Shown here: positions 366 to 63,933 of the stretch, in pieces | Position numbering within the stretch: the first letter of the stretch is position 1 | Layout of the letters: each line of letters starts with the position of its first letter | DNA from: Candidatus Sulfomarinibacteraceae bacterium | GTDB lineage: Bacteria; Acidobacteriota; Thermoanaerobaculia; Thermoanaerobaculales; Sulfomarinibacteraceae | Direction of reading: 5' to 3' | NCBI GenBank assembly: GCA_963796455.1 | Contig: CAWCLO010000001.1 | Span: forward strand, 608,001 to 672,000 | DNA length: 64,000 bases | The notes under the pieces: generated by a model | Told to the model about the DNA's origin: nothing | Seen by the model: only the letters and a program-made list of their open reading frames with translations | The model's database searches: none | Position numbers and translations under genes: made by a program

Positions 366-462
366 GTTTGAGTTCTGAGTTCTGAGTTCTGAGTTGCCGA
401 ACAGTCTCTCAAGAGCATGGTCGAAGGATGGGATAACTCAAAACTCAACTCTCAAAACTCAG
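366..462. repeat. Inverted heptamer arrays (CTGAGTT)n ... (AACTCAA)n
   Basis: About 4 units on each side of a ~40-bp spacer, between the divergent pyrR and DMT genes. Confidence 0.9.
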
Positions 463-497
463 CCTTTCGACCGTCGTTCTGGATATGATGTCGGACG

Positions 498-1385
498 GTG
501 ATTCAGAATAAGACGACCCGCCCGAGCGATCGGCTGATGATCCTCGCCGCAGCCGTGCTGTTTTCGACTGGTGGGGCAGCGGTCAAATTGTGTTCGATGA
601 CCAACTGGCAGGTCGCGAGTTTCCGGTCGGGAATCGCGGCCGTCGCACTTGCCCTTCTGTTACCTGCCGCAAGGCGAAACTGGACCTGGCGGACCTTTGT
701 CGTCGGCAGCACCTACGCATTGACGATGATCTGCTTTGTTTTGTCCAATAAGCTCACGACCTCCGCCAATGCCGTCTTCCTGCAAAGCACAGCGCCGTTG
801 TACATTCTCCTGTTGGGACCATTCCTCCTCAGCGAGCCTGTCAGGCGCCGCCAACTACTTTTTATGGCAGCGCTCACCATCGGCATGTTTTTCATTTTCA
901 GTGGGGAGCAACAGACTTTTACCACCGCCCCGGACCCGCTTCGAGGCAACATCGTCGGAATCGTGACAGGAATCTGCTGGGCCTTCACGATCATCGGATT
1001 GCGTTGGTTGGCCCGTGGATCCGATCCCGCCTCGCAAAACAACCCTGCCGCGGCCGCAACACTGTCCGGGAATCTGATTGCGTTTCTGATCACTCTACCC
1101 GCAGCACTGCCGGTCGTCTCCAGCACCGCCATTGACTGGGCCGCTGTGAGCTTTCTCGGGATTTTTCAGATCGGTCTGGCTTATGTGTTCATTGTTCACG
1201 GTGTACGTCGGGTCAGCGCCCTCGAGGTCTCGCTGCTGGTATTGCTCGAGCCGGTCCTCAACCCGATCTGGTCGTGGTTGATCCACGGCGAAACGCCGAC
1301 TTCATACTCGCTGGTGGGAGGAGCCTTGATCGTTCTGGCGACGGCCGTCTACACCTGGACCGGCTCGCGACCAGAATCGAATTGA
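498..1385 (+). CDS. DMT/EamA family transporter
   Basis: 295 aa, about 10 hydrophobic segments, two EamA-like halves (LLEPVLNPIW motif). Confidence 0.9.
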   Translation: MIQNKTTRPSDRLMILAAAVLFSTGGAAVKLCSMTNWQVASFRSGIAAVALALLLPAARRNWTWRTFVVGSTYALTMICFVLSNKLTTSANAVFLQSTAPLYILLLGPFLLSEPVRRRQLLFMAALTIGMFFIFSGEQQTFTTAPDPLRGNIVGIVTGICWAFTIIGLRWLARGSDPASQNNPAAAATLSGNLIAFLITLPAALPVVSSTAIDWAAVSFLGIFQIGLAYVFIVHGVRRVSALEVSLLVLLEPVLNPIWSWLIHGETPTSYSLVGGALIVLATAVYTWTGSRPESN

Positions 1386-1777
1386 CGCTCGCCGTGCGCC
1401 ACGGTGACCGTGGTGTGGAGACCGCCCCGCAGCCGATAGTCAAGCACGATCTCCATCCAACGAGGCTCGCAGCAGGCCACCAGGTCATCCAGGACGCGGT
1501 TGGCGGCATGCTCCTGATAGATCCCCACATTGCGGAAGCTCGTCAGGTAGTACTTGAGCGACTTCAGCTCGATACATACCGCCGACGGCAGATATCGAAT
1601 GCTCAAAGTGCCAAAATCAGGCAGCCCGGAGAATGGGCACACACAGCTCCATTCATCGGTCGATATCTCGACCTCCGCCGCGCGCGGCCGGTATTCGTAT
1701 GGAAAGGTCTCGAGGACCCCGGGAGTCAATTTTTCGACCCCGTCGAATGAAAACGTCCGTCCTTCCGCCTCGACCAT
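1349..1777 (-). CDS. queF: NADPH-dependent 7-cyano-7-deazaguanine reductase (preQ1 synthase)
   Basis: CPFSGLPDFG, ELKSLKYYL, QEH and RGG motifs. Confidence 0.93.
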   Translation of the reverse strand: MVEAEGRTFSFDGVEKLTPGVLETFPYEYRPRAAEVEISTDEWSCVCPFSGLPDFGTLSIRYLPSAVCIELKSLKYYLTSFRNVGIYQEHAANRVLDDLVACCEPRWMEIVLDYRLRGGLHTTVTVAHGERQFDSGREPVQV

Positions 1778-1850
1778 GGCTCATCCTACAACAGGTCGGA
1801 GCTCGTCAGCGATCGGATACACTGATCCGACAACATCCAAGAGGTGCCCA

Positions 1851-2684
1851 ATGAGCTACGCAAAGAGGTTCCGAGTCAAACCCGGCCAAAAAATCGATCT
1901 TGACGGCTTCGAGGCCAATTGGAAACCCGACGGCATGAAGCGGGTGGATGGAGAGGACGAATTCGTCAACCTGACCGAACGCCTCAGCGAACTCCAGCAC
2001 CTGATGTATGCGGAGGACAAACGATCGCTACTCATCGTCCTCCAGGGTCGCGATGCCGCGGGCAAGGACGGCACCATCCGCCACGTCTTTGGACCGATGA
2101 ACCCGCAGGGCTGCAAGGTGACCAGCTTCAAGGTGCCGTCAAAACTCGAATCTTCCCACGACTTTCTCTGGCGCTGCCACATCGCGGCACCGGCGCGGGG
2201 GCAGGTCGGGATCTTCAATCGTTCCCACTATGAGGACGTGCTGGTCGTCCGGGTTCATGATTTGGTGGAGAAATCGGTATGGTCGAAACGATTCGATCAC
2301 ATCAACAATTTTGAAAGACTGCTCAACGACCAGGGGACGACGGTCCTCAAGTTCTATCTCCACATCGATCGTGAAGAGCAACTCGAACGATTCAAGAAAC
2401 GAATCGACAACCCGAGAAAGAACTGGAAGATCAGCGACGCAGATTATTCAGAACGCCCCTTTTGGGATGAATACACTGCGGCCTTCGAGGACGCCCTCAG
2501 CAAATGCAGCACCCGTGAGGCGCCATGGTTCGTGATCCCAGGCAATCGTAAATGGGCCCGCAATCTGGTCATAGCCAACATCGTCGCTGAAACGATGGAG
2601 GGCTTCGGGATGCAGTACCCCGAACCCGAGGTCGACATGGAAGCGATCAAGCGGATGTATCACGAGGCGGAGGACGCAGGCTGA
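1851..2684 (+). CDS. ppk2: Polyphosphate kinase 2 family protein
   Basis: QGRDAAGKDG Walker A, HDFLWR and FNRSHYEDV motifs. Start MSYAK follows a GAGG RBS. Confidence 0.92.
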   Translation: MSYAKRFRVKPGQKIDLDGFEANWKPDGMKRVDGEDEFVNLTERLSELQHLMYAEDKRSLLIVLQGRDAAGKDGTIRHVFGPMNPQGCKVTSFKVPSKLESSHDFLWRCHIAAPARGQVGIFNRSHYEDVLVVRVHDLVEKSVWSKRFDHINNFERLLNDQGTTVLKFYLHIDREEQLERFKKRIDNPRKNWKISDADYSERPFWDEYTAAFEDALSKCSTREAPWFVIPGNRKWARNLVIANIVAETMEGFGMQYPEPEVDMEAIKRMYHEAEDAG

Positions 2685-2853
2685 TTCTCGTTGCAGGATG
2701 CAGGATGCAGGATCACTCGTGTCCAAGACAGAGTCCCAGACAGCAATCAGGGACGGCGACAGCGATCAGCGTCGGCGACAGGGAACAGCTATCAGTGTTC
2801 AGCGTCAGCGAACAGGAGTCAGCGTCACGTTTGACTGGTATGGAGCCCTGAAA

Positions 2854-3207
2854 TCAAGACTTTGGGTTGAGTAAACGCCATGTCATGGCACGGACCTCAT
2901 CGAAGGCCTTCATCGCTTCACGGGCTCCGTTCGCGCTGATTGCGCTGGCGTGGGCGAGGAGCTTCAAGTGGCTGTCAACCTCCTTCGCGGAGGCGTAGGC
3001 GATTCTCCAGTGGTTCGACCGATCTCTTCCGATCCGGCCGTGCCCTTCCGCCAGATTCGCAGGGACCGAACTTGCCGACCGGATCGCCTGATCGGCTATG
3101 GACTTCAGAGGAGCTGGAACCCTCATCACGAGTTTGATCGCGATTCCTGCTGCTTCCAGAGCTTTCGAGAGGGCAACAAGGTTGGTGTTCGTGGCGGCTG
3201 AGGACAT
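2854..3207 (-). CDS. Four-helix bundle protein (23S rRNA IVS-protein / bAvd-like family)
   Basis: 117 aa with DQAIRSASSVPANLAEGHGR...IAYASAKEV, the family signature (Q..RA..S...NIAEG..R). GGAGG RBS precedes the ATG at 3207. Confidence 0.9.
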   Translation of the reverse strand: MSSAATNTNLVALSKALEAAGIAIKLVMRVPAPLKSIADQAIRSASSVPANLAEGHGRIGRDRSNHWRIAYASAKEVDSHLKLLAHASAISANGAREAMKAFDEVRAMTWRLLNPKS

Positions 3208-3345
3208 GGTCACCTCCGGGTCGTTCATGCCCATTCCCACAAGCCGGTGTGGTGGCCGATGTCAAGGATGCCCTGCACCCTGCCTGTCCTTGACATCGGC
3301 CGCCCACCGGCTACCCCTTCCTTGGAACGACCCGGAGGTGGCCAC
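3206..3345. promoter_or_regulatory. Long two-stem inverted repeat covering the RBS and start of the four-helix-bundle gene
   Basis: 3206-3226 pairs with 3325-3345 (19/21). 3254-3268 pairs perfectly with 3287-3301 (15 bp), extended by 3242-3249/3305-3312. Confidence 0.85.
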
Positions 3346-3621
3346 TTCGCCGCCTGTACTCCTGACCGCTGCCGCTGCTCTCCGTCGCTAAACACTGACC
3401 GCTGTCCCTGTTCGCTGTTGCCTGTCGCTGACGCTGGACACTGTTGCTGACGCTGTCCCTGACCGCTGTCCGAGACACCGTTTTGGACAGCGGTGATCCA
3501 GCATCCAGCATCTGGTATCTGGTATCTGGTATCTGGTATCTGCCGAAATCCTCCTTGGCATTCTCGCTCGCCGGACCCATATTCTTCACATCCGCACATT
3601 TCAGCGAAAAGGGGGGCACTC

Positions 3622-4008
3622 ATGCATTGGTGTTACTCATGCCCGCACTGCGACGCCTCGCTCAACCCCGATGAAACGATCGTTCTGATCGGCGAATGCG
3701 GTCCCCACCGGATCCTGATGGGCTTCCACCCCGAACCGGGGAACTACCGCGGCTATCTGCCGCCGGAGTTCCACCTGCAGGAAGGTTCGATGTGGGACTT
3801 TTTCTGTCCGGTTTGTTCTCGGAGCCTGGTCTCCGAGGCCGCCCCCGAGCTCTGTGCCCTCGACCTGGACACTCAAGGCGTCCGCCACCGGCTTTTCTTT
3901 TCCCGCACTGCCGGCGAAAGGGCGACCTTCGTGATCACGGCCGAAGGCATCACGAGCCACGGAGAGCACGCAGAACAACATTCTCTGGAAATGCTGGATC
4001 TTGTATAG
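3622..4008 (+). CDS. Hypothetical protein with two CxxC motifs (possible Zn-binding)
   Basis: CPHC and CPVC; G-rich RBS precedes the ATG at 3622. Confidence 0.7.
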   Translation: MHWCYSCPHCDASLNPDETIVLIGECGPHRILMGFHPEPGNYRGYLPPEFHLQEGSMWDFFCPVCSRSLVSEAAPELCALDLDTQGVRHRLFFSRTAGERATFVITAEGITSHGEHAEQHSLEMLDLV

Positions 4009-4052
4009 AAGGACCAGTCGTTTGCAGAGCGACAGAGCTTGAAGACTTCCGC

Positions 4053-4228
4053 ACTCCCTTTCTCCCATTCTGGAACGGGATCGGGATCGGATAGCGTGGA
4101 CTGACCATCCCCTTTCTCCCTTTCTCCCTTTCTCCCTTTCAGGAACGATATCCGCGACAGCCGTTCGATAGCGATGGCGCGGATACTGAGCCGTGCGCTG
4201 CCCCTCTGCTCCTCCGCCCCTCTGCGCC
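4053..4228. repeat. Composite intergenic repeat (CTCCCTTT, GGGATC, GATAGC, CTCCTCTG-like units)
   Basis: Same modules as at 10600-10830 and 6740-6870, in reverse-complement orientation. Confidence 0.85.
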
Positions 4229-4269
4229 ACCCCTCGTCACCCCGAAGCGCTGCGTGTAGGATAGAACAC

Positions 4270-5268
4270 GTGGACTTCAAGAAACGCCAGGTGATCCTGA
4301 GATCGATCGGGCTCCTCGTCGCGGTGCTTGGCGCTGGGACCCTGGGTTATATGCTCATTGAAGGCCAGGGCATTATGCCCGCCTTCTATATGACCACTAT
4401 AACGGTCACCACCATTGGGTTTCGCGAGGCCTTTCCGCTTTCTCCGGCCGGCCAGGCATTCACGATCGTGCTCGCCTTTGGCGGCGTCGGGGTCATCCTG
4501 ATGATCGCTACCGATTTCGCCCGGGCAATGCTCGACACCGATATCAGCCGCATGATCGGTCTGCGAAAGGATCTGACAATGTTGAAGAAGCTCAGCCGAC
4601 ATATTGTCGTGTGCGGTCACGGCCGCATGGGCAATGCCGTCGTCGAGGTCCTGCGCGAACGGGGCGTTGATTTCGCCGTGGTTGAACTCGACGCCGAGCG
4701 TTGCCGGGAACTCGAAGAACACCATATTCCGGTGGTCCGTGGGGACGCGACCAAGGAAGATGTGCTCGAAGCCGCTGGAGTCGCCAGAGCCAATACTCTG
4801 ATCGCCTGCCTCGCCGACGACGCCAACAACGTGTATTCGATTCTGCTCGCCCGACAGCTCAAACCCGGGATCACGGTCATCGCGCGAGCGGTCGAGGACG
4901 GCGCCGAAGAACGGCTCAAACTCGCGGGCGCCGATCGGGTGCTCAATCCTTACCGGGTCGGCGGAATCAGGCTCGCCATCACGGCCCTCAAACCAACCGT
5001 CGCCGACTTCGTCGAGGCCTCCCTCTTCGGGTCATCGATGGAGCTCGAACTGGCCGAGGTGGTGGTTCACCCTTCCAGCGATCTTGCCGGCAAAACCCTT
5101 GCCGGAGCTGAAGTCCGGCAGCGTTTCGGCATCATCGTCGTCGCTCTCAAACGAGGCGACAAAAGCACCTTCAACCCGGAGGCTCACGAGGTGATCGAGG
5201 CCGGTGATGTTCTGGTCGCGTTGGGGCCGATTCACGCTCTCGAAAGAATCGAGCAGGCAACGCAATAG
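4270..5268 (+). CDS. Potassium channel protein with TrkA-N/TrkA-C (RCK) domains
   Basis: Two TMs, pore segment TVTTIGFRE, VCGHGRMG Rossmann motif, C-terminal RCK-C. Confidence 0.9.
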   Translation: MDFKKRQVILRSIGLLVAVLGAGTLGYMLIEGQGIMPAFYMTTITVTTIGFREAFPLSPAGQAFTIVLAFGGVGVILMIATDFARAMLDTDISRMIGLRKDLTMLKKLSRHIVVCGHGRMGNAVVEVLRERGVDFAVVELDAERCRELEEHHIPVVRGDATKEDVLEAAGVARANTLIACLADDANNVYSILLARQLKPGITVIARAVEDGAEERLKLAGADRVLNPYRVGGIRLAITALKPTVADFVEASLFGSSMELELAEVVVHPSSDLAGKTLAGAEVRQRFGIIVVALKRGDKSTFNPEAHEVIEAGDVLVALGPIHALERIEQATQ

Positions 5269-5274
5269 GACGAG

Positions 5275-5390
5275 AGGCTATGTGGCTATGGCCGGCTGCT
5301 TCGCAGCCTGGCTGTGAGGCTTATGATTGTTTTTTCTAGGCGCGACCACACAGCCTCATAGCCCCATAGCCTTATTGCCTTATGGCATAG
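5275..5390. repeat. Inverted heptamer arrays (GGCTATG-like ... CATAGCC-like)
   Basis: Degenerate arrays between convergent genes. Confidence 0.8.
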
Positions 5391-5448
5391 AGATCAGCGT
5401 GTCTCGCGGGGGAACCCTGGTGCGACATCGCCGTTGAAGCCAGCGATC

Positions 5449-6669: not shown

Positions 6670-6872
6670 GGATACCTCCCGGTCGGCACCGCGGTTCCCC
6701 GGATTGTAGCGTATCGGATCAGCCACCTACCCGCCCGTACCCGTATCGGGAAAGGGGGAAAGGGCGCAGGGGAGAAAGGGAGAACGCCCGCAACACGATA
6801 CTCGATGTTGGATGCTCGAACCGCCACATGGCAGAGGGGAAGAGGGGCGGAGGAGCAGAGGGGCTCGAATCG

Positions 6873-7305
6873 AGATACGAGATGCTGGATACTGGATCAC
6901 TCTTGTCCAGGTGGGAGTTTCGGACAGCGATCAGGGACAGCGACGGGGAACGGCAGAAAGCGTCAGCAAACAGGAGTCAGCGGCAGCGACCAGCGGCCGG
7001 GGCAGCGACAGCGCCAGCCAACACCAATCACTCCGTCGGGTTCAACAGCCGCCAGGTCATGGCACGGACCTGATCGAAGGCCCTCATCGCTTCACTGGCT
7101 CCGTTCCGGCTGATCGCCCCGGCGTGGCGGCCGATGTCAAGGATGCCCTGCACCCTGCCTGCCCTTGACATCGGCCGCCCACCGGCTACCCATTTCTGTA
7201 GAACGATCCGGAGGTGGCCACGCCGTCACTGCGCCTGATCGCTGGCCCTGAACACTGATTGCTGCCCCCTGTCCCTGTTCGCTGTCCTCTGTCGCTGCCG
7301 CCGCA
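6873..7305. mobile_element. Internally deleted copy of the four-helix-bundle cassette
   Basis: Left arm, gene 3' end, inner hairpin (GGCCGATGTCAAGG...CCTTGACATCGGCC) and right arm all match 2692-3541. About 300 bp of the gene 5' part and UTR are missing. Confidence 0.75.
7028..7126 (-). pseudogene. C-terminal remnant of four-helix-bundle gene
   Basis: Translates HAGAISRNGASEAMRAFDQVRAMTWRLLNPTE*, versus HASAISANGAREAMKAFDEVRAMTWRLLNPKS* in the intact copy. Confidence 0.9.
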
Positions 7306-7336
7306 ATTCGGGCACCGACGCGGACTCGGGGGAACG

Positions 7337-7427
7337 GCGCCTTTGCGTCTTTGCGTTCTTCGCGGTTTCAGCATGTGCACGCGGGACGCGTGCACCACCA
7401 TGGTGGTGCGGCCGTCTCGGCTGCACT
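7337..7427. repeat. Dispersed ~90-bp repeat with three overlapping palindromes
   Basis: Closely similar copy at ~12775-12865; core GTGCACGCGnGACGCGTGCACCACCATGGTGGTGCnGCCGTCTCGGCTGCAC. Confidence 0.9.
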
Positions 7428-7503
7428 TCCCCTCTGCTCCTCTGCTCTGATGGATCGATAGCGATAGCGATTATTCGCGGTAGCGACCCGGGTACAATGT
7501 CGC

Positions 7504-8922
7504 GTGATGTATTCCTTCCGGAAGTGGCGAGAAAAGTACGGAACGATCACGGCCCGCTCGTTGTGGGACCTGTTCATGGTCTGGGTCGTGATCATCAACC
7601 TCGGCCTGATCCTCTTCGATCTCAGCTATCTGTGGCTTCGTCCGATGTACATCCATTGGGTACCCTTTGTGACAAAAATCTGGGACCCGGTCCTGGGTAT
7701 CAAACCCCACCCACTCACCGACCGTTTGATCGAAGAAGAGTCGGCGGCCGAGGAGATTCTGCGAATCGACCCGACATCGCCCGCACTCACCGTGAAGCTC
7801 GATCAATTGCGACGTCTGACGCAACGGATGTTCAACGAAAATCCTTTTTTCAGATCGGGGCAGACCAAGGACCTGGACGCCCTCTGGGTCGGGATGGCGA
7901 GAGAGACCGGCCGGGTTTCCACTCACTATTCGAATTCCGAGATCGTCGCCGCGGTCGCAGAGGATTACTGGAGCGGCTCACCAGAAGAACTGAGCACCCG
8001 CTTCAAGCGTTTTGACGAATTTGCGGTACCCCTGCTCGAACTCAACTACTTCCGTGGCTACGACCTCGACGGCGAGTTGATCGACCATTTCTGGAAGATT
8101 GACCTGCCGTTCCTGATCCTGTTCTGGTTCGAATTCCTGACCCGATGGATCCTTGCCTTCCGTCGGGGAAGCTATGCCCGGTGGTACTTCTTTCCGATCT
8201 TTTACTGGTACGACCTTCTCAGCCTGATACCGGTCACCGCGTTGCGGCCTCTTCGTCTGCTTCGAGTCCTGTCCATTTATATGCGGCTCCGCCAATCGGA
8301 GCTTTCGAACATCGGCCGGGATTTTTTCAGTCGAACCGTCGCCTACATATCCAACATCGTCACCGAAGAAGTCTCCGACCGCGTTGCCGTCCGTATCCTC
8401 GACGAGTACCGAGAAGAGATAGTAGACGGCACCCACGTCCGCATCGCCCGCGCCACGGTCGAACCACGGCGCGAGGAGATCGAACGAGTGCTCACCAACC
8501 AGATACGGAGCATCCTCACCGATGAGGAGACTCTCGAGCGTTTCCGGCAACTGCTCGAGCTGAACCTCGACAATGCCGTCGAAGAGTCGGAGAGCCTGCG
8601 TTCACTGCCGCTGCCGCATATGGTCGTCAAACCCGTCGTCCGGGCGGTCGGCGAAGTCATTCTCGAAACCACCATCGAGACCATCGCGACGACCCTCAAC
8701 AGTACGGAGGGTGATGAGGCGGTTCAGGCGGTGGCCTCCTCGATCATCGACTCGGTGTTCTCAGGCCCGGTTCTTGTAGAAATTGAATCGCTGGCCAAGG
8801 ACATCAGCCTCCAGGTCATCGATCACATGAAGGACGTCGTGGTCGTCAAAAAGTGGGCCCTGCCCGGCGAGCAGGAGGATCGACCAGCCATGCCGTGGGA
8901 GAAACCTGACGAGAAAGCGTAA
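7504..8922 (+). CDS. Membrane protein, ion-transport-like, with S4-type Arg repeat
   Basis: N-terminal TMs, DLLSLIP..LRPLRLLRVL motif, long helical acidic C-terminus. Confidence 0.75.
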   Translation: MMYSFRKWREKYGTITARSLWDLFMVWVVIINLGLILFDLSYLWLRPMYIHWVPFVTKIWDPVLGIKPHPLTDRLIEEESAAEEILRIDPTSPALTVKLDQLRRLTQRMFNENPFFRSGQTKDLDALWVGMARETGRVSTHYSNSEIVAAVAEDYWSGSPEELSTRFKRFDEFAVPLLELNYFRGYDLDGELIDHFWKIDLPFLILFWFEFLTRWILAFRRGSYARWYFFPIFYWYDLLSLIPVTALRPLRLLRVLSIYMRLRQSELSNIGRDFFSRTVAYISNIVTEEVSDRVAVRILDEYREEIVDGTHVRIARATVEPRREEIERVLTNQIRSILTDEETLERFRQLLELNLDNAVEESESLRSLPLPHMVVKPVVRAVGEVILETTIETIATTLNSTEGDEAVQAVASSIIDSVFSGPVLVEIESLAKDISLQVIDHMKDVVVVKKWALPGEQEDRPAMPWEKPDEKA

Positions 8923-9048
8923 AAGGGCGCACGGGTGAAAGGGAGCCCGTGAGCCCGTCGCGATTCTGATAAGGGCGCCTCGTCCCCCTTTCCCCCTTTC
9001 TCCCTTTCTCCCTTTCTCCCTTTCTCCCTTTCTCCCTTTCTCCCTTTT
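8921..9048. repeat. Octamer arrays AAAGGG.. / (CTCCCTTT)n
   Basis: About 8 CTCCCTTT-like units with a degenerate inverted arm on the left. Confidence 0.9.
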
Positions 9049-9115
9049 TGATAGTCCGGTGGTGCACAGGCGTGATGAAACCTATTCGAGTCCAACCGGC
9101 ACGGACTTGAAAAGA

Positions 9116-10599: not shown

Positions 10600-10899
10600 T
10601 CCGGATCAGGAAAGGGAGAAAGGGGGGAGAAAGGGAGAAACCCCGCGACACGATGCTCGATACTCGATGCTGGATGCTCGAGCCCGAGCCCGTTTCCGAA
10701 AGGGGGAAAGGGAGAACGAACCTCCAAGTAACCGAGGGGCAGAGGGCCGCTCGGTATCCTCGCTATCGCTATCGGGATCGCTCTCGCTATCGAACGGCTG
10801 CGCTGGATACCGATCCCGTTCCCGTTCCCGGACGGAAGTACCGTCCCGGCACCGATCACCCACTCATGGCAATGTCGCCTCCCGATGTCATCTTGAAAG
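10600..10899. repeat. Composite intergenic repeat
   Basis: GGGAGAAA, GATGCTC/GATACTC, GCTATC and CCCGTT units, plus a ~50-bp block shared with 42909-42956. Confidence 0.85.
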
Positions 10900-12134: not shown

Positions 12135-13215
12135 AGAGGCACAACGACACAGATGCTGGATGCTGGATCAGCCACCGTTCGTCACAACCACCAAGACACG
12201 AAGCCGCCACCAAGGTTCTTGTCACGGCGTAGCCACGGAGCGACGATGCCGGACCCACAGAACACACAGAAAAACACAGAAGCCATCGCAGCGCAGCGCA
12301 ATTTGCCCGCAGATCACGCAGATAGACACAGATGACAGCCTGATTGCGGGGACATCAGATACCGCTGCAACCAAACGGCGTCCGCATCTGGAGTTCTTAA
12401 CGCAAAGGCGCAAAGACGCAGAGGACTTCCCGGACGAATCCTCAGTCAGGCGAGGTCCTGGCCGCCGTTGGCGGCCAGGTACCGCTGGGTAAGGAAACCG
12501 CCCCGAAAACAAGCTGTCGTCGCGGTTTCCTTACCCAGCGTCCCTGCGCGACCGCGCAGGCCTCGCCTCCTTCCTCCTCTTTTCTTCAATCAAGGAAGGT
12601 GGTCTCCGATGCAAGGCAGAACCGGCATGCCGTAGGCCTGCCGGACGGTGGGAAGCGGGGTGACAACGAGCGCTGGCGATCGGAGTCACCCCTCTTCTCA
12701 CCGGCGACGGGCGATCGGAGATCGTCTGTCGATCTGCCGACACTGACGCCACCCTCGCACAAGTCCGCCAACCGCGCCTTTGCGTCTTGGCGTTCTTTGC
12801 GTTTTCATCAATGTGCACGCGAGACGCGTGCACCACCATGGTGGTGCAGCCGTCTCGGCTGCACTCCGGTCGTGCCTTTGCGATGGCTTCTGTGTGTTCT
12901 GTGTGTTCTGTGGGCCTTTGCGCCAGCCCTCTGTGTTCCCTCTCTGTGTCTCCGTGCCTCCGTGGTTTCCTTGGTGTGGCTCCTTTGTGCCTTTGTGTCT
13001 TCGTGTTTGGGCGTCCTCTATCTGGGTCCACCTGGGTGATCGGTGGGCATATTCGGTCCATCTCCCGTCGATAGCGATAGCGATAGCGATAGCGATAGCG
13101 ATAGCGATGATCATATCTGCGTTCATCTGCGTGATCTGCGGTTTCTCCTGCGATGGTTGGGCGAGAATCCAAAAACCGAGAATCCTAATTCCTAACTTCA
13201 ATTCCTAAATTCATA
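12135..13215. repeat. ~1.1-kb composite repeat region with inverted 9-mer arms and palindromic core
   Basis: Left arm has ACACAGAA-, CGCAGAT- and CGCAAAG-type arrays; their complements lie on the right. Perfect 19-bp IR at 12483-12501/12522-12540, (CGATAG)x6 at 13069, AATTCCT-like array at the right end. Confidence 0.9.
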
Positions 13216-22638: not shown

Positions 22639-23051
22639 GGCTTGGGGCTTGGGGCTTGGGCGAAAAGCTATGGGCTATGGGCTATGGGGTTTAAGCAACG
22701 AACTGCAGCCGTTAGCTTTCGTGCCTGTAGCCTATTTCGTGGAGCCGAGCCAAATGCAAAACGCCGGATCGTCAAGGAAAATGGGCGCCGTGTCACCGAC
22801 GGGGCACGGGCACGAGTTGGGATGCTCGGTGGCGACGCGAGACGGAGAAACCGCAGATCACGCAGATGAACGCAGATAACATCGAGCAGGGCTCCTGGTG
22901 GATCGGGGACTCTCGTCGCCACGTTCGCGGGATGTCGTGAGATGGAGTCTGCGAGCGCCGGAGGTGCGAAAGATTCATAGCCCGAGCCTCATGCCCCAAG
23001 CCCTTAGCTTCAGGCCTCAAGCCTCAGGCCTCAGGACTCAGGCCCCAAGTC
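22639..23051. repeat. Composite repeat with inverted heptamer arms
   Basis: (GGCTTGG)3 and (GCTATGG)3 on the left; CATAGCC/CAAGCCT/CAGGCCT units on the right; internal 34-bp CGCAGAT module at 22844-22877. Confidence 0.9.
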
Positions 23052-24619: not shown

Positions 24620-24829
24620 GGCTTGGAGCTTGGGCTACAGGCTATAGGCTATAGGCTATACCTATACGCTATACGCTATACGCTATAAGGATACAGGTTC
24701 TAGGCACTGAGCTATCGGGCGCTGGTCGTTGCGTATAGCGTATAGCCTACTGCGTTTGGCGTTTGGCGTTTGGCGTATAGCTTATCGCTCACCGCCCAGG
24801 TGGGTGGACGGCCCTCAGGCCCCAAGCCT
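24620..24829. repeat. Nested inverted heptamer arrays
   Basis: GGCTTGG, (GGCTATA)n, (CGCTATA)n ... (GCGTATA/GCGTTTG)n, CCAAGCC. Confidence 0.9.
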
Positions 24830-36596: not shown

Positions 36597-37450
36597 AGCT
36601 CGATGCTCGATGCTGGACTTGTCACGGCGTAGCCTGAAGGGCGAAGCCGGATGCTGGATTTGTCACGCCGTAGCCCGCATGGCGAATCCGGGTGCCGGAG
36701 AAACCGCAGATCACGCAGATGAACGCAGATCGACCATCGCCATCGCCATCGCCATCGCCATCGCCATCGCCATCGCTATCGACGAAGAGTTTCTAGATTG
36801 GCTGATTCAGGCGCGAAACACCCTCACTAAGAATTGCAGAGACACCAAGAGCTAGCTAGAAGGCCCACAGAGCACACAGAAAAACACAGAGGGCACTCAG
36901 TTCATCACGAATTAGCTGCCGGATCCTTCCGGGAATTTGAACACAAAGGCGCAGAGACATCGCAAGACCGTAGGGCCATCGCAAAAACCGCGAAGGCCGC
37001 GAAGACCGCAAAGAGGTCACGGCGACGTACACATTCGAGTAGTTCTTGCCCTGCCCCATTTATAGAAAGAGAGAGGCAGAACCGACGTGCGTCGCGCACG
37101 TCGGTCGGTGAGAAGGTCGTCCGGAACAAATACCTGTATTTGGAGCGGACGTCCTTCTCACCGGCGGCAGGCGATCATTGATCGACTGTCGTTCTGCCTC
37201 GGCAGCTTCGGTATGGCCCTCACGCTCAGCCACCGATCCGCAGCGTCTTTGCGTTCTTTGCGTTCTTTGCGGTTCATTCCGGGTTCTTCGGTGTCTTCTG
37301 TAGGCCATTGTGGTTTCGACCAGAGCGACTGCGATGGATCTGCGCAGATCCTTCGACTTGGTCGCGAGGCTCCCTCGCTCAGGATGACATTCGGCCGGTG
37401 TTGCCGCGGCCAGCACGGCCTCATGTCATCTGCGTGATCTGCGGTGTCTC
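36597..37450. repeat. Composite repeat region homologous to 12135-13215
   Basis: Two TTGTCACG.CGTAGCC units, 34-bp CGCAGAT module, (CCATCG)x8, 9-mer arms, central hairpins at 37081-37163, half GTCATCCTGAG palindrome at ~37346-37390. Confidence 0.9.
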
Positions 37451-37467
37451 AGGAATCCTGGTGCCGG

Positions 37468-42660: not shown

Positions 42661-42704
42661 GCGCGAAGCCTCGCGCGTTTGCCGCGCCGTGTCAAGCCTC
42701 CGGC

Positions 42705-43292
42705 CGGGGAAAAGGGGAAGGGGGGCACGGGAGAAAGGGGGAAAGGGAGAAAGGGGGAAAGGGAGAAAGGGAGAAAGGGGGACCGTCCGCTCGCTCGATA
42801 CTCGATAGTCGATGCTCGATGCTGGATATCGGATTTCGGATTTCGGATTTCGGATTTCGATCCAGGATGGCTGAGGGGCGGAGGAGAAAGGGAACAAACA
42901 GAGAACCACCCGGCACCGATTTCTCCTGCATGGGAATGTCGCCTCCCGATGTCATCCTGAGCGCAGCCCCCACAGGGGCGAAGTCGAAGGATCTATGAGA
43001 TGGACCGTAGAGACTTCCAGCCGCAGATCCTTCGACTTCGCGCCGAAGGCGCTTCGCTCAGGATGACATCTTGAAAGACAGTTTCCGTTTCCGGACCCGG
43101 CCCCGTTCCCGCACGGGGCGGACCGTACCCAGGATTGCGGGGGGGGCCGGCGGACCGCTCCCCATCCTCGCTCTCGCTATTGAACGGCTGCTATGGATTC
43201 CGATCCCGAAAAGGGAAACGAGGATAAGGGACAACCATGCACCCACCTACTCCAGCGGAAGTTCGATCTCCCTTTCTCCCTCTCTCCCTTTC
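42705..43292. repeat. Composite repeat with a central 123-bp REP-like palindrome (42948-43070)
   Basis: GGGAGAAA, GATGCTC and CGGATTT arrays; GATGTCATCCTGAGCG..GCGAAGTCGAAGGATCT / AGATCCTTCGACTTCGC..CGCTCAGGATGACATC. Confidence 0.9.
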
Positions 43293-43343
43293 ATTTCCAG
43301 AAGGTGGAGATCTTTCTGCATGAAATTTCAGCCTATAACTCGG

Positions 43344-44399: not shown

Positions 44400-44596
44400 G
44401 TCCCGATTCCGATGAAAGGAGGAAAAGGAGAAAGGGAGAAAGGGAGAAAGGGAGAACCGTACCGGTTGCGTCGTTCGTGATAAGGATCGTGTCTCCTCTG
44501 CTCCTCTGCTCCTCTGCTCCTCTGCTCCTCTGCTCCTCTGCTCCTCTGCTCCTCTGCTCCTCTGCTCCTCTGCTCCTCTGCTCCTCTTCTCCTCTG
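44400..44596. repeat. Octamer arrays (GGGAGAAA)n and (CTCCTCTG)x11+
   Basis: 11 perfect CTCCTCTG units at 44493-44580. Confidence 0.95.
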
Positions 44597-44612
44597 CCCG
44601 AACTGGGGAGAC

Positions 44613-53467: not shown

Positions 53468-54197
53468 GATGTTGGATACCGGATGCCGGATGCTGGAACG
53501 AGCAGCGTTTCGGAGAAACCGCAGATCACGCAGATGAACGCAGATCGACCGTCGCTATCGAACGCTGTCTGGGCTAACGATCTCTCAGCAAGGTATGGGA
53601 AACCGCACTGCCCGATCCCGTTCCCGAATTGCAGCGGCAGCGACAGTGTCCAGCGACAGCGACAGCGTCAGGGAGCGGCGACAGCGTCAGCGGCAGCGAA
53701 CAGCGATCAGTGATCAGCGGCGGCGGCCAGGAGTACAGGCGACGAAGTGGCCACCTCCGGGTCGTTCAACGGAAGAAGTAGCCGGTGGGCTGCCGAGTTG
53801 GGAGAGACCGGTCGGCCCACTGGAGGATCGCCTACGCCTCGGCGAAAGAGGTCGATAGCCACTTGCAGCTTCTCGCCCACGCCGGATCGATCAGTCGAGA
53901 TGGAGCCGGTGAAGCGATGAACGCCTTCGATCAGGTCCGTGCCATGATCTGGCGGCTCTTGAACCCTAATGGGTAAGTGCTATTCGCTGACGCTGACCAC
54001 TTTCGCTGGCGCTGGTTTCTGCCGCTGATAGCTGACTACTGTTCCCTGACGCTGTCCGCTGTCGCCGTCCCTGAACGGCGACCGAGAACCTGTCATGGAT
54101 AAGAGTGTTATCCTGCATCCTGCATCCTGCATCCTGCATCCTGCATCGAGCATCTCGCATCGAGTATCGAGTATCGAGTATCGAGTATCTCGCATCG
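53468..54197. mobile_element. Second internally deleted four-helix-bundle cassette (opposite orientation) within repeat arms
   Basis: CAGCGA-rich arm plus CAGGAGTACAGGCGACGAAGTGGCCACCTCCGGGTCGTTC matches the reverse complement of ~3325-3364. It is joined to the gene's 3' half and ends in (ATCCTGC)n and (ATCGAGT)n. Confidence 0.75.
53794..53976 (+). pseudogene. C-terminal half of four-helix-bundle gene
   Basis: 47/60 aa identical (manual count) to the intact copy; lacks the N-terminal half including the NLAEG motif. Confidence 0.9.
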
Positions 54198-54211
54198 TGA
54201 ACCCGTCAGGT

Positions 54212-56700: not shown

Positions 56701-56704
56701 GCCC

Positions 56705-57790: not shown

Positions 57791-57815
57791 CTGAGAAACC
57801 TCCCGGAGGAACTTG

Positions 57816-60113: not shown

Positions 60114-60319
60114 GTCTGACGGACATCATGTCGGCGGCCGGTCTCTCGTCGTGGACCGAGATCGCGCTGATTCTCTGCTTCATCAGCTTTTCGGCAATCG
60201 TGTTCTGGGTCTTCGTCGTGCGACGCAAACCCTCATATGAGCACCTGCGCCATCTGCCGCTCGAGGACAACGGGAACGGCCCATCGCAACCCGCCGCGAA
60301 TGGAGGCAACTCATCGTGA
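60110..60319 (+). CDS. ccoQ: cbb3 oxidase small subunit
   Basis: Single TM, LPLED motif, position between ccoO and ccoP. Confidence 0.8.
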   Translation: MSLTDIMSAAGLSSWTEIALILCFISFSAIVFWVFVVRRKPSYEHLRHLPLEDNGNGPSQPAANGGNSS

Positions 60320-61002
60320 CTGACAAACAACCGGATCAGCAGCCGACCGCCCCGGACTCGGACCACCTCCTGGACCACGCCTATGACGGCATTCAGGAGT
60401 ACGACAACCCACTGCCACGGTGGTGGCTGGCCATCTTCTGGGCAACCATCATCTTCACACCGCTTTATGTTCTCTATTTTCACTTCGGCGCCGGCCTGCT
60501 TGCGGTGGACAGCTACGATCAGGAGATGATCGCGTTTTACGACAAACAGGCGGAACAGCTGTTGGCACTGGGTGAAATCTCCGAGACCATGCTCTCCGAT
60601 CTGACCGTCGACCCGAGCATGATGAACGGCGGCAAAAAGATCTTCCAGGCAAAATGTGCCACCTGCCACGGGATGTTTGGCGAAGGCGGCATCGGACCAA
60701 ATCTGACGGACGAATACTGGCTTCACGGAACGCAGTATCTCGAGGTCTATGCAACCGTCCGCGACGGTGTGACCGCCAAAGGCATGTTGGCGTGGGAGCG
60801 CCAACTTCGACCCGCCGAGCTGATGGCGGTGAGCGCCTATGTGGGAACCCTCCTCGGGTCGGATCCTCCGAACGCCAAAGAAGCTCAGGGAAACCTCGTC
60901 GTCCGGCTGCCCGCGTCCGAGATCGATGCCGGGACCGAAGCCGCAGAAGCTGTTGCTGAAGAAGGGGCTGAAGAGGTCGCATCCGAACCGGCCGCATCCT
61001 GA
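60316..61002 (+). CDS. ccoP: cbb3 oxidase subunit III (monoheme type)
   Basis: HAYDGIQEYDNPLPRWW, CATCH and GPNLTD motifs. Confidence 0.92.
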   Translation: MTDKQPDQQPTAPDSDHLLDHAYDGIQEYDNPLPRWWLAIFWATIIFTPLYVLYFHFGAGLLAVDSYDQEMIAFYDKQAEQLLALGEISETMLSDLTVDPSMMNGGKKIFQAKCATCHGMFGEGGIGPNLTDEYWLHGTQYLEVYATVRDGVTAKGMLAWERQLRPAELMAVSAYVGTLLGSDPPNAKEAQGNLVVRLPASEIDAGTEAAEAVAEEGAEEVASEPAAS

Positions 61003-61012
61003 GGCAAATTTC

Positions 61013-62413
61013 GTGGCCACGACATCAAATGCTCCGGAGGCCCAGGAACGGGTCCTTTCGACCCTCAACCGGGACGGGTCCCGGCGCTGGATCCGGCCCA
61101 AACTCTCCAAGGGGAAACACTATCGCCGGCGTTTGATCACGGGCTGGGCGCTGATCGCGACCTTCACCCTGATCCCGATCATCAAGGTCGGCGGCAAACC
61201 GCTGATTCTGCTCGACGTGCCGAAAAGAGAATTCACCTTCTTTGGTGCGACTTTTCTGCCGACCGACACCTTTTTATTGATGTTGTTGCTGTTTTCGATC
61301 TTTATCGGAATCTTTCTGGTCACCGCCGTCCTCGGCCGGGTGTGGTGCGGATGGGCCTGCCCCCAGACCGTCTACATGGAGTTTCTCTACCGCCCGATCG
61401 AGGTCCTCATCGAGGGCGGCCGCACCAAACAGCTCAAGCTCGACGCCGAAGGCGCCAATGCCCGCCGCCTGCTCAAAAACGTGGTCTTCCTGTTCGTCTC
61501 GGCCTTCCTCGCAAATACCTTCCTCGCCTATTTCGTGAGTTGGGAGCAACTTCTCAGCTGGATGACCGGTTCGCCCACCACACACCCGGTCGCCTTCGCC
61601 TTGATGCTCGGCACCACCCTGTTAATGTTTTTCGATTTTGCCTACTTTCGCGAACAGACTTGTATCGTCGCCTGCCCGTACGGCCGCTTCCAGTCGGTTC
61701 TGCTCGACCGGCAATCGTTGATCGTCGCTTACGACAAGGACCGCGGTGAAGTCCGGCAGAAGTGGCGTAAAAATGAAGAGCGGAAGGCCGGCGACTGCAT
61801 CGACTGCAATTTGTGTGTCAGCACCTGTCCGACCGGAATCGATATCCGTGACGGCCTCCAGATGGAGTGCATCCACTGTACACAATGCATCGATGCCTGC
61901 GACGAGGTCATGAACCGGGTCGGTCTCGAACCCGGTCTGATCCGCTACACCTCACAGGCCGAGCTCGCCAGCGGCAAAAGATCATTTTTCCGCCCGAGGG
62001 TCTTTGTCTACTCAGCCATCCTGCTCGTGATGTTCGGCACCTTCACCGTCTCGCTGGCCGGCAAGAGCAGCGCCGATGTCACGGTTCTGCGCGGTCTCGG
62101 GGCGCCCTTTACGATCCTCCCGGGGGGTGAGGTTTCGAATCAGATTCGGATAAAGATCGCCAACCGATCTCCCGAGGAACGCTCCTATCTCGTCGAACTC
62201 GTCGACGCCGGTGATCTGGTACTGATCGCGCCGGAAAACCCGTTGACCGTCGCTCCAGGAGAAACCGAAATGACCGGCGCATTTATCACCGGCCCGGCAT
62301 CCGTCTTCGCGGGTGGTGATATCGCCATCACTTTGAGAATTGGCGACGGGTCGGATTTTTCGACCGACCGGCCCTACCGACTGCTCGGTCCGGCAACGAC
62401 CGGAGGTGGATGA
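61013..62413 (+). CDS. ccoG: cbb3 oxidase accessory protein, 4Fe-4S
   Basis: GRVWCGWACPQT, CPYGRFQS and CIDCNLCVSTCPTGIDIR motifs. Confidence 0.95.
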   Translation: MATTSNAPEAQERVLSTLNRDGSRRWIRPKLSKGKHYRRRLITGWALIATFTLIPIIKVGGKPLILLDVPKREFTFFGATFLPTDTFLLMLLLFSIFIGIFLVTAVLGRVWCGWACPQTVYMEFLYRPIEVLIEGGRTKQLKLDAEGANARRLLKNVVFLFVSAFLANTFLAYFVSWEQLLSWMTGSPTTHPVAFALMLGTTLLMFFDFAYFREQTCIVACPYGRFQSVLLDRQSLIVAYDKDRGEVRQKWRKNEERKAGDCIDCNLCVSTCPTGIDIRDGLQMECIHCTQCIDACDEVMNRVGLEPGLIRYTSQAELASGKRSFFRPRVFVYSAILLVMFGTFTVSLAGKSSADVTVLRGLGAPFTILPGGEVSNQIRIKIANRSPEERSYLVELVDAGDLVLIAPENPLTVAPGETEMTGAFITGPASVFAGGDIAITLRIGDGSDFSTDRPYRLLGPATTGGG

Positions 62414-62910
62414 TGAAGCCCGGTACCCTGTGGCCGTGGATAATCGGTGGGGCCCTCGTCCTGCATGTGGTCGTGATGCTGGGGGTCGTCTTCTTTGCTG
62501 CATCCGATTCGTCCTATGCGGTCGAAGAGGACTACTACCAGAAGGCGATCGATTGGGACCAGAAACGAGCTCAGGATCGCGATAACGAAAATCTCGGCTG
62601 GTTGCTGGAATTCGAGGTCAACCCACCCCAGATTCCCGGCGATCAACCGACCGTCGTGGTCCGCCTCGAGGACGCTCTCGGCGAGCCCTTGGCCGACGCG
62701 ACGGTCGATCTCGAAACATTCCACAATGCACGCAGCGATGACATCATCCGCGTCCGGGTCGATGCCTCCGACGAAGCCGGTCTTTATTCGGTCGCACCCG
62801 CTATGCGCCACAACGGCCTGTGGGAACTCCGCTTTACCGTAACCCTTGGAGAGGACACATTCACCTTCGCTGAAACACGCCACCTTTTTGTCGAAGGAAG
62901 CTGGTTATGA
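62410..62910 (+). CDS. ccoH: FixH/CcoH family protein
   Basis: N-terminal TM, VEEDYY motif, follows ccoG. Confidence 0.8.
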   Translation: MMKPGTLWPWIIGGALVLHVVVMLGVVFFAASDSSYAVEEDYYQKAIDWDQKRAQDRDNENLGWLLEFEVNPPQIPGDQPTVVVRLEDALGEPLADATVDLETFHNARSDDIIRVRVDASDEAGLYSVAPAMRHNGLWELRFTVTLGEDTFTFAETRHLFVEGSWL

Positions 62911-62911
62911 A

Positions 62912-63016
62912 TTTGGAGTTCGGAGTTCGGAGTTCGGAGTTGCCGCACGTGCTTTTGTGTCGTTTCGGGCGGGTGGGCGCCATTCCGAATTCCGAATTCC
63001 GAATTCCGAACTCTGG
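62912..63016. repeat. Inverted heptamer arrays (GGAGTTC)n ... (TCCGAAT)n inside the cco operon
   Basis: About 4 units on each side. Confidence 0.9.
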
Positions 63017-63031
63017 AAACGGGAACGTTGC

Positions 63032-63787
63032 GTGACGACTCTGTTGTTAACCGTTTTCGTGGCGAGCCTTGTGGGCTCATTGCACTGCATCGGAATGTGC
63101 GGGCCATTCGTAGCTTTTTATTCAGGCGCTGATGGATCAGGCGGTGCAAAACGCCTCCTCAGTCACAGCGCCTACTCGGCCGGAAGACTGCTCACCTACG
63201 CCCTGTTCGGTCTCGCGGCCGGTTCGGTGGGCGCGGCCCTCGATGTCGCCGGATCGCTGGCCGGCGTGCAACGGATTGCAGGTTTTGTCGCCGGCGGGGT
63301 GATGATTCTGTGGGGAGTAGTGGCCTTGCTGCAACTGCGCGGCGTCAAGATTTTTCGACACGGCTCCGGCAACGGCCGGGTTGCCAGGGCACTTCGCCGC
63401 GGGTTTTCAGTGGTGAGCAACAAACCGCCGATCGTGCGCGCCGGGGTCGTCGGTCTTCTATCGGGCTTTCTGCCCTGTGGATGGTTGTGGGCATTCGTCG
63501 TCACCGCTGCCGGCACCGGAAACGCCCTCACAGGGGCCGCCGTAATGACCGCGTTCTGGGCGGGAACCGTGCCCGCGCTCCTCGCGGTGGGCTTTGGCAC
63601 CCAACTCGTGAGCGCCCCGTTACGCCGCCACATTCCCGCCGTCACCGCCATCCTCTTGGTTGGGCTGGGGCTGTTGGCGATCATCGGAAGGCCGGCCTCC
63701 GTCACCGCCGCCATCAACAAACACCAGCACAGCCATGAAGTCCCCGCACCCGAAGACGCCGCCGCTTCCTGCTGTGAAGCCGAATAG
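63032..63787 (+). CDS. DsbD_2/TauE-like membrane protein (cbb3 assembly)
   Basis: SLHCIGMCGP, GRLLTY and GFLPCG motifs. Confidence 0.88.
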   Translation: MTTLLLTVFVASLVGSLHCIGMCGPFVAFYSGADGSGGAKRLLSHSAYSAGRLLTYALFGLAAGSVGAALDVAGSLAGVQRIAGFVAGGVMILWGVVALLQLRGVKIFRHGSGNGRVARALRRGFSVVSNKPPIVRAGVVGLLSGFLPCGWLWAFVVTAAGTGNALTGAAVMTAFWAGTVPALLAVGFGTQLVSAPLRRHIPAVTAILLVGLGLLAIIGRPASVTAAINKHQHSHEVPAPEDAAASCCEAE

Positions 63788-63841
63788 AATCTCAGGATCC
63801 GAGCACCCATTCAATACGCATGGCGACGTCGGCCGGGTGAG

Positions 63842-63933
63842 AAACGCAAAGACGCCAAGATCGCGAAGTCGCCGCAAGCGTTTCGAACGCCATTATCAAG
63901 ACTTCTTTGCGATCTTTGCGTCTTCGCGGTTTT
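63842..63933. repeat. Inverted 9-mer arrays (CGCAAAGAC-like ... TCTTTGCG-like)
   Basis: Seen directly. Confidence 0.8.

Follow-up and report, generated by a model that had tools for sequence, protein, structure and literature searches.

Polarized heptamer arrays in a Sulfomarinibacteraceae genome and their probable origin from the arms of small hairpin cassettes

Introduction

Heptamer repeats are over-represented in bacteria and, in the part of the literature available to us, are described without a mechanism (PMC4692102). In Xanthomonas and Nostoc, 70 and 75 convergent heptamer pairs capable of forming stem-loops have been reported (Rehm et al. 2015, PMC4692102), and the TAACTGA repeats of Beggiatoaceae show an orientation bias relative to genes (MacGregor 2015, PMC4679880). 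We analyzed a window of 64,000 nucleotides from a Candidatus Sulfomarinibacteraceae bacterium (GCA_963796455.1, contig CAWCLO010000001.1, positions 608,001 to 672,000), together with its genome and related assemblies. As in the systems above, intergenic 7-mer arrays are found here, and they stand in convergent inverted pairs as in Xanthomonas and Nostoc. Whereas those genomes use one or a few units each, at least 10 families are present in this one (PMC4692102, PMC4679880). The available portions of the published accounts mention no link to cargo genes, no stacking and no transposon ends, and 'helix bundle' occurs 0 times in the available text of PMC4679880.

Another described system, the ORF-bearing 23S rRNA intervening sequences, carries a four-helix-bundle ORF (S23p / PF05635) in a stem loop made of terminal inverted repeats (available part of PMC4990558). 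The cassettes described below share with them a PF05635/TIGR02436 ORF inside a terminal stem and a common fold; they differ in being intergenic and multi-copy and in having tandem arrays as arms. No cassette copy of the window lies inside an rRNA gene: Rfam gave no match in the window, and gene calls place the copies between protein genes. The cassettes work like ORF-bearing rRNA intervening sequences and are not members of that class. In the open-licence literature we found no description that links cassettes, arms and polarity. The genome juxtaposes repeat families with their own cargo genes, one expanded family and stack-forming alleles, and provides a testable lead on the origin of bacterial 7-base repeats.

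Results

Tandem arrays keep a fixed left-right order across intergenic gaps

The preliminary description of this DNA had claimed that one form of each unit sits toward the left of a gap and its reverse complement toward the right, regardless of flanking gene orientation. Tandem Repeats Finder and direct reading of the sequence recovered its arrays at all eight loci that it named (features given here without a sign are unstranded). These are 369-395/435-461, a simple heptamer hairpin without a gene (369..461); ~5275-5290/5352-5371, a GGCTATG-family pair (5275..5371); 8911-8945/8986-9047, a pair of the GGGAGAAA family (8911..9047); 12256-12281/12888-12912, within a composite hairpin; 22639-22688/22985-23049, a GGCTTGG/GGCTATG pair around a CGCAGAT-type arm (22639..23049); 53474-53497/54110-54197, which encloses a cassette remnant; 62915-62941/62982-63010, a GGAGTTC-family hairpin without a gene (62915..63010); and 63844-63873/63904-63928, a CGCAAAG-family pair (63844..63928). 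Further arrays comprise a heptamer pair after a terminator-like hairpin (24633..24785), a stack made exclusively of left-form arrays (10610..10830, + strand) and a set of unmatched arms in which one family's left form is followed by another family's right form (44414..44597).

Tested with our own gene calls and degenerate unit patterns, 16 of the 29 window gaps of at least 30 bp contain arrays, and 39/46 window arrays occupy the predicted side (p=1.8e-6). Over the whole genome, where a tandem-repeat search had been proposed, 825 of 986 exact arrays were concordant, a midpoint test that is inflated because this genome itself served to choose each family's left form. The bias was present in convergent (221/256), divergent (181/222), ++ (233/268) and -- (190/240) gaps, each with p<1e-19. 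All these p-values, that of the window included, overstate independence, because a small number of larger elements has given rise to many of the arrays by copying. Polarity regardless of gene orientation is thus borne out. Among 60 opposite-form pairs of one family, 58 had the left form first, 1 was reversed and 1 was mixed. Degenerate patterns detected 1347 tokens in gaps versus 7 in base-shuffled gaps, and in 255/294 gaps with both forms every left form precedes every right form. The two arms of a gap belonged to the same family in 60/156 cases, above the 34.2 +/- 4.9 expected by chance.

These data bear directly on whether the pattern could stem from misassembly or from mere slippage with a bias set by the direction of replication. 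The genome is known from an assembly alone, whose method is not stated, which leaves some room for such an origin. Among sequencing runs, no RNA run was listed for this genome, and the best DNA run had a share of 0.28. However, when the forms were held fixed and 53 loci of independently assembled relatives were scored, the families and their polarity recurred, with same-family pairs running left form first in 23 cases versus 2; the arrays are degenerate and locus-specific; and the variation follows a codon-position pattern unlike misassembly. Nearly all 200-kb bins hold both forms under either sign of GC skew, and replication direction was therefore rejected as the source of polarity. We regard this origin as very improbable, in agreement with the earlier view that slippage alone is insufficient. 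By eye, one 6-mer family in a related allele (L030) has the opposite polarity.

Unit families bracket their own small genes

Eight unit families in this genome each bracket a TIGR02436 or GxxExxY gene of their own, with the left form upstream: four single-copy TIGR02436 loci, three GxxExxY loci (one broken) and one expanded family. Each of the four TIGR02436 and three GxxExxY loci has inverted arms from a different window family; for example, a cassette at C1:983116 combines GGCTATG-family arms with a four-helix-bundle gene, and a GxxExxY cassette at C1:750137 has CGCAAAG-family arms. Across the order, the tandem unit was alike or one letter different on both flanks at 16 of 30 TIGR02436 loci, most of the remaining loci had degenerate arms by eye, and closely related TIGR02436 proteins had units in common. 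No cognate gene was found in this genome for the abundant GGATGC[AT], GGAGTTC-type and GGGAGAAA families. By eye, the single-copy cassettes have no obvious target duplication.

We conclude, with a probability of about 0.7, that small hairpin cassettes are the source of the arrays, as their two arms or as what is left of them, and that the left/right rule is inherited from cassette architecture. The cassettes are probably mobile. The preliminary description was supported on polarity, predicted hairpins and nesting and not on templated addition; it overlooked that the arrays are arms of gene cassettes, as well as the IS4-type ends, the recombination of alleles, the copying of composites and the link of the left form to stop codons. 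A shared C-rich motif facing the interior of the arms, found in 32 versus 3 of 241 in one family, is a weak signal; it is absent in other families and was not adopted.

The link to stop codons raises the alternative that selection on transcripts sets polarity. Arrays would then arise or land in either orientation and be kept only with the purine/G-rich arm after a stop and its complement before a start, for instance avoiding Rho loading or stabilizing mRNA ends as REPs do, and the cassette link would be secondary. Consistent with this, the left form lies behind the stop codons of 261 genes versus 22 for the reverse form, with a peak 5-15 nt downstream; filled gaps are commonest when convergent (196/411 versus 109/535 divergent); and MacGregor linked heptamer orientation to the start codon (PMC4679880, available part). 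Yet divergent gaps, which have no adjacent stop, are equally polar (181/222), the left form is on qualitative reading not G-rich in 6-mers and GxxExxY-type units, and the arm mismatches comprise 206 G-T versus 190 A-C, showing no sense-strand G-U bias. Family-matched arms and cognate genes would also be left unexplained. We consider this account unlikely as the source of polarity; transcript selection probably acts as a filter on the sites where cassettes survive.

The expanded cassette carries a four-helix-bundle gene under purifying selection

A full-length copy of the expanded cassette occupies 2714..3495 (- strand). Its IS4-type terminal inverted repeats enclose arms of mosaic 6/7-mers, a leader stem-loop that is conserved and the four-helix-bundle gene (2854..3228, - strand, 124 aa, TIGR02436 / PF05635). 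Arrays of the GGATGC[AT] family lie directly beyond one cassette end in the left form (2692..2713, +) and beyond the opposite end in the reverse form (3496..3542, +). The expectation that such arrays form long hairpins is supported by the predicted fold of 2685-3550, with z=-14.3 against 20 shuffles. Two remnants of the cassette are also present in the window. One, a deleted copy at 6898..7310 (- strand), retains a 3' fragment of the gene (~7037-7162), the leader hairpin and arms within a stack of other arrays (6750-7471); the other, at 53632..54074 (+ strand), retains a gene fragment (53794-53967) and is nested in the 53474/54110 array pair.

Genome-wide, the family gave 73 TIGR02436 matches and 100 tblastn segments; 59 copies are full-length, with a median nucleotide identity of 89% among copies, and across 18 congeners the number of matches ranges from 0 to 52. 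The stop is at the same codon in 58/59 full-length copies, a count of intact ORFs biased by the selection of copies as full-length. With a dN/dS of 0.146, and a pN/pS of 0.60 for private and 0.12-0.15 for shared variants, the gene is under purifying selection, a signature resembling that of a self-serving element. Recombination among copies is indicated by r2 that declines with distance (0/1000 permutations as extreme).

The modeled protein (pLDDT 93.5) had its best fold matches in 2GSC, 2RLD and Avd (4DWL), and by sequence alone a single solved structure, 2GSC, was matched, weakly (E=0.0096). The fold is similar to that of Avd from diversity-generating retroelements (4DWL, TM 0.75/0.85, E=0.024; PMC10053308, available part). 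The two proteins differ in sequence (~10% identity), an RVT_1 search detected no reverse transcriptase in this genome, and no adenine-biased variation was detected among rare alleles of the expanded family; the reverse transcriptase and adenine-specific variation of diversity-generating retroelements were thus both missing in these searches.

The same copies speak to templated addition, in which an enzyme would work on the two ends of a locus, adding or copying units, and so build the arms in place around local DNA. Several features are compatible with it: the loops of simple heptamer hairpins appear unique, units switch in both arms together across related cassettes, and the genome contains REP-associated tyrosine transposases. 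For the loops, 0/19 simple GGAGTTC-type hairpins had a genome match covering half the loop, a search of little power with such short queries, and the loop of 62915..63010 matched nowhere else in the genome; these hairpins are therefore unlike recent copies of one element. On the other side, the genome (90.5% complete) gave no RVT_1 match, cassettes and whole composites are copied as blocks, and it is REPs, rather than these tandem units, that flank the tyrosine transposase genes. Left arms of the 59-copy element aligned no better with their own right arms (mean score 64.4) than with those of other copies (67.0), which shows no own-arm co-evolution. The preliminary description's suggestion of repeat addition at both ends was not supported, and we judge it a little less likely still than transcript selection.

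The expanded cassette has ends matching IS4-family elements

In mobile insertion cassettes and MITEs of the IS4 family, such as MIC231, IS4-type ends enclose a passenger gene that has taken over the position of the transposase. The 59-copy element shares with them matching terminal inverted repeats and flanking direct repeats; a passenger gene instead of a transposase and gene-less derivatives are also common to both. In contrast to these elements, the passenger here is itself a hairpin cassette, present as dozens of mosaic copies and subject to purifying selection. In congeners the cassette comes with a different end type, and the comparison covers a single family of the window. For this comparison we drew on the available part of an IS4 review (PMC2266710).

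Terminal inverted repeats are present at both ends of 28/59 full copies and at one end or more of 52/59, and cassette-type ends number 291 in the genome versus 24 in the reversed control. Exact 9-bp flanking direct repeats were found at 21/77 end pairs, compared with 2.4 after shuffling (maximum 8), and repeats with at most one mismatch at 39/77 versus 8.0; the other 38 of 77 mismatch at two or more of the 9 positions, and the full set of 77 includes three mispairings of 35 bp. The only other repeat length in excess was 16. The flanks thus suggest a 9-bp target duplication for the 59-copy cassette. Insertion at the centre of a 4-bp palindrome was dropped in favor of this 9-bp repeat, since no exact empty palindromes were found. 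No empty site was found in a close strain, the best ppk2 relatives being 78% identical.

Matching ends delimit 1.5-kb elements of other bacteria (L118, L165, L166 and L184). All three tested encode NF033592 IS4-family transposases above the cut-off, and the duplications of the elements in L166 and L184 are 9/9. A cognate IS4-family transposase had no match in this genome (90.5% complete), so that the same-cell transposase of the described mobile insertion cassettes was not found although the inverted repeats, shared ends and 9-bp flanking repeats were; it was found in 1/24 congeners only. Its supply in this genome was presumably past or episodic. The genome's single DDE_Tnp_1 element was rejected as the cognate, as its ends differ. 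A second end type, associated with 8-bp repeats, bounds the cassette in three congeners (G005, G008 and G014); these repeats are exact in 7/20 (identity 0.86 versus 0.70 shuffled, maximum 0.83). Separately, three tyrosine recombinase matches were recorded in this genome.

Stacks probably combine nesting, allelic recombination and copying of composites

In the gap after ppk2, hairpins differ among 19 related contigs, so that one gap holds different hairpin families across related genomes, the comparison of orthologous gaps proposed earlier. Two allele types are joined in the chimeric alleles L021 and L045, and two other alleles (L015 and L025) are nested. Nested insertion into hairpins, suggested previously, is therefore seen in the latter two alleles and also as REP doublets at element centres. 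Family pairs were arranged as 13 nested, 6 crossing and 3 serial, and 253/263 family occurrences in multi-family gaps were unpaired; strict last-in nesting was consequently rejected as a rule. Composites were copied as blocks with 77-90% identity. The stacks likely grow in three ways: elements insert into one another, alleles of a gap recombine, and composites are copied whole. The arrays are no independent events, as all three patterns were seen; they are not independent microsatellites, and they turn over between species at one gene boundary.

Within the window, the composite hairpin at 12254..13141 has GxxExxY-type arms around REP-like palindromes and belongs to a dispersed family of 26 loci (itself included) matching over at least 400 nt. 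Its REP doublet (12813..12864), with a second copy at 7375..7426, resembles the flanks of one REP-associated tyrosine transposase gene in this genome. The composite at 42706..43292 has several left-form arrays around a palindrome (42948-43070) and matches 13 loci (itself included) over at least 250 nt. Five arrays in the left form and two in the right form make up the stack at 36598..37458; in three related genomes (G001, G005 and G008), the same gap measures 38-270 bp and has other contents.

Intergenic hairpins directly behind genes are shared with REP/REPIN-RAYT systems (available parts of PMC3116915 and PMC3733652), and two NF047646 genes are present in this genome along with genuine REP doublets. 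The tandem arms, unlike REPs, do not flank RAYT genes, a position taken by the central palindromes; the REPs form a separate layer inside the stacks.

Discussion

In the mechanism that we propose, each cassette gene, of the four-helix-bundle or the GxxExxY kind, would be bracketed by a tandem unit specific to its family, and the left form would come first in either landing orientation because a hairpin reads alike from both strands. Cassettes and gene-less derivatives may insert into, or recombine with, existing hairpins, and would land directly behind stop codons, where they may be tolerated. Insertion into a loop would preserve the left-left/right-right order, and a crossover joining the left of one allele to the right of another would preserve it as well while producing unpaired arms. 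An IS4-family transposase with a preference for intergenic arrays may act in trans on the 59-copy cassette and move it, and the four-helix-bundle protein may be needed by, or beneficial to, the propagated copy. For the mobilization of the other cassettes, arm-to-arm recombination is our working guess.

A broader proposal, possible but in our judgment doubtful, is that TIGR02436/GxxExxY hairpin cassettes form an undescribed class of selfish DNA without a transposase of its own. A small Avd-like protein would act in cis on the hairpin that encodes it, one arm would be copied from the other so that the two stay matched, and spread would proceed through hairpin invasion or recombination and capture of unrelated IS ends; the polar heptamers of many bacteria would be the debris, and rRNA intervening sequences one landing site. 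With a named transposase family that has matching ends, a descriptive oddity becomes testable: whether the cassette transposes in trans, whether it requires the small protein and whether the arms are bound. As a minor observation, a GIY-YIG gene beside the abundant long palindrome was considered, and a single match of 668 aa was obtained.

Tandem arrays are polarized across intergenic gaps

The preliminary description had claimed that one strand of each tandem unit (the left form) lies toward the left of a gap and its reverse complement (the right form) toward the right, regardless of flanking gene orientation. Repeat finding and direct reading of the window (C1:608001–672000) confirmed the arrays where they had been placed; 16 of its 29 gaps of at least 30 bp carried arrays, 46 in all, of which 39 lay on the predicted side. 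Across the genome (G000; 5.02 Mb in 10 contigs, ~60% GC, rated 90.5% complete), 825 of 986 exact arrays were on the predicted side, with gap borders that are approximate because genes were called by a hexamer-scoring script. Polarity held in each of the four gene-orientation classes, with 79–87% concordance. Replication direction was ruled out as the cause, since both GC-skew signs carried both forms. Among opposite pairs of one family formed by exact arrays, 58 had the left form first, one was reversed and one was mixed, and families matched across the gap in 60 of 156 cases vs 34.2 ± 4.9 in 5000 shuffles. Degenerate unit patterns gave 1347 tokens in real gaps vs 7 in shuffled gaps, with left before right in 249 same-family pairs vs 9 and in 468 different-family pairs vs 52. 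Because the left forms had been picked on G000 itself, they were re-tested unchanged on 53 loci of other assemblies, where the expected order was found 23 times vs 2; one 6-mer family in allele L030 was an exception with reversed polarity. Independent assemblies speak against an assembly artefact as the source of the arrays, which is very unlikely. We conclude that the polarity is real. In G000, the left form stood behind the stop codon of 261 genes vs 22 for its complement.

Unit families bracket cognate cargo genes

Four-helix-bundle and GxxExxY genes are often found between such arrays, and this starting idea was tested in G000, which had 73 profile matches to TIGR02436 and 4 to GxxExxY, the latter at three loci. 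The window holds a four-helix-bundle gene at 2854–3228 (PF05635/TIGR02436 match) and gene fragments at 7037–7162 and 53794–53967; the predicted fold of the 2854–3228 product matches Xcc0516 (2GSC) and BT_0352 (2RLD), and Avd more weakly. In G000, the three GxxExxY loci each lay between arrays of a different window unit family, as did each of four single-copy four-helix-bundle genes, with the left form on the upstream side and the complement on the downstream side. No cognate gene was found in G000 for three abundant unit families. Among the best 30 TIGR02436 loci of the order, 16 had the same or nearly the same unit on both sides and most others had degenerate arms by eye; close proteins had units in common.

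We propose, with a probability of about 70%, that array polarity would be inherited from the architecture of such cassettes, that stacks would build through nested insertion, recombination between alleles and copying of blocks, and that putative IS4-type transposition in trans would act on one expanded cassette only. Transcript-level selection probably restricts the places in which hairpins persist; that it sets the polarity is unlikely, as it leaves matched families, cognate genes and divergent gaps unexplained.

A housekeeping-like gene (C8:10562-11350 in G000, TlyA-like by eye) resembles cassette cargo: the GGCTATG-family arms on either side of it are long, with the left form upstream of the gene and the complement downstream. 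In other genomes of the order (L229, L232, L233 and L237), a heptamer-armed four-helix-bundle cassette sits within a polymerase coding sequence, labeled dnaE-like from its translation; the host frame is open across the entire insert in 4 of 4, with three different units.

The expanded cassette has IS4-type ends

The cassette at 2714–3495 (minus strand) carries the 2854–3228 gene, which gave 100 tblastn segments in G000 and has 59 full-length copies there, with a median identity of 89%. The dN/dS was 0.146 (57 clean ORFs); pN/pS was 0.60, nearer neutral, for variants private to single copies and 0.12–0.15 for shared variants, as would be expected if selection targets the lineage being copied. 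The four-gamete test was failed by 5879 of 7875 site pairs and linkage fell with distance (0 of 1000 permutations as extreme); the copies are mosaics. Cassette-gene matches in related genomes (congeners) ranged from 0 to 52. The downstream neighbor gene had the opposite orientation in 43 of the 59 full copies.

The cassette is bounded by terminal inverted repeats, and 9-bp flanking direct repeats were exact in 21 of 77 end pairs vs 2.4 when shuffled, with near-exact repeats also among cases in non-repeat DNA. One end was scanned over 185,579 genomes, and 80 loci were analyzed. Among the matches listed, matching ends bounded 1.5-kb elements encoding IS4-family transposases, of which at least two were flanked by perfect 9-bp duplications. 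Short elements lacking a gene, in another genome of the same bacterial family, carried such ends as well. A matching transposase was not found in G000 at its 90.5% completeness and was present in only 1 of 24 congeners. In G005, G008 and G014 (L243–L262), the same cassette had a second end type with 8-bp flanking repeats within palindromic heptamer arrays. Gene-less elements of 318–388 bp (L114–L116, L120, L164, L174 and L189) shared the IS4-type ends around a different palindromic core and had 9-bp flanking repeats, exact in some.

Stacks probably arise by nesting, chimerism and block copying

Orthologous gaps listed for five congeners were short or filled with unrelated hairpins. Nineteen of 80 ppk2 loci extended to the next gene; none of the 19 held the cassette gene, and their gaps contained several different hairpin families beginning at the stop codon. 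Among the five congeners compared, ppk2 was found at the corresponding locus (window 1851–2684) only in G006. Nested insertion, as suggested earlier, was seen in alleles L015 and L025, where one hairpin lies within an intact outer pair, but strict nesting did not hold throughout: 13 arrangements were nested, 6 crossing and 3 serial. Alleles L021 and L045 were chimeric: the end of the gene and the left arm were those of one allele type, and the complete hairpin and promoter region that followed were those of a second type. Nesting and chimerism both preserve polarity, and chimerism leaves single arms behind; in multi-family gaps of G000, 253 of 263 family occurrences were unpaired. Composites 12254–13141 and 42661–43343 matched 26 loci over at least 400 nt and 13 loci over at least 250 nt, respectively (window copies counted). 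As whole composites are dispersed as repeats, many same-facing arrays are copies of few elements.

Simple heptamer hairpins of one family had a unique loop in 19 of 19 cases, which counts against pure copying; such hairpins may be ancient or may have been assembled in situ. Such loops, and arms that change together on both sides across lineages, favor the templated addition of repeat units that had also been suggested, but no enzyme for it was found in G000 and an own-arm signal was absent, leaving this explanation quite improbable. Linkers in congeners were C-rich behind many left arms and G-rich before many right arms of different families (L002, L007–L010); the pattern, with window 62960–62981 among its examples, was weak in G000.

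Relation to known systems and other mobile sequences

Mobile insertion cassettes are a described kind of element. Inverted heptamer pairs (PMC4692102), gene-oriented heptamers (PMC4679880), ORF-bearing rRNA intervening sequences (PMC4990558), Avd homology (PMC10053308) and IS4 elements (PMC2266710) are already described. A description uniting these and mobile insertion cassettes was not found in the open-licence literature searched.

Gene-less derivatives in G000 had a REP doublet (paired REP-like palindromes) where the cassette gene would be, and similar doublets flank a REP-associated tyrosine transposase gene (NF047646); in the window, doublets lie at 7375–7426 and 12813–12864. The end motif of a long palindrome at 42948–43070 occurred 233 times in G000 with one mismatch allowed, and no cognate gene was found there. 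Three longer Y1-transposase genes in G000 (~340 aa; C4:1144044, C4:1147021 and C8:150867) have inverted repeats at their ends, and a five-member protein family of the same genome is IS91-type transposase-like by eye (C7:285302-286618).
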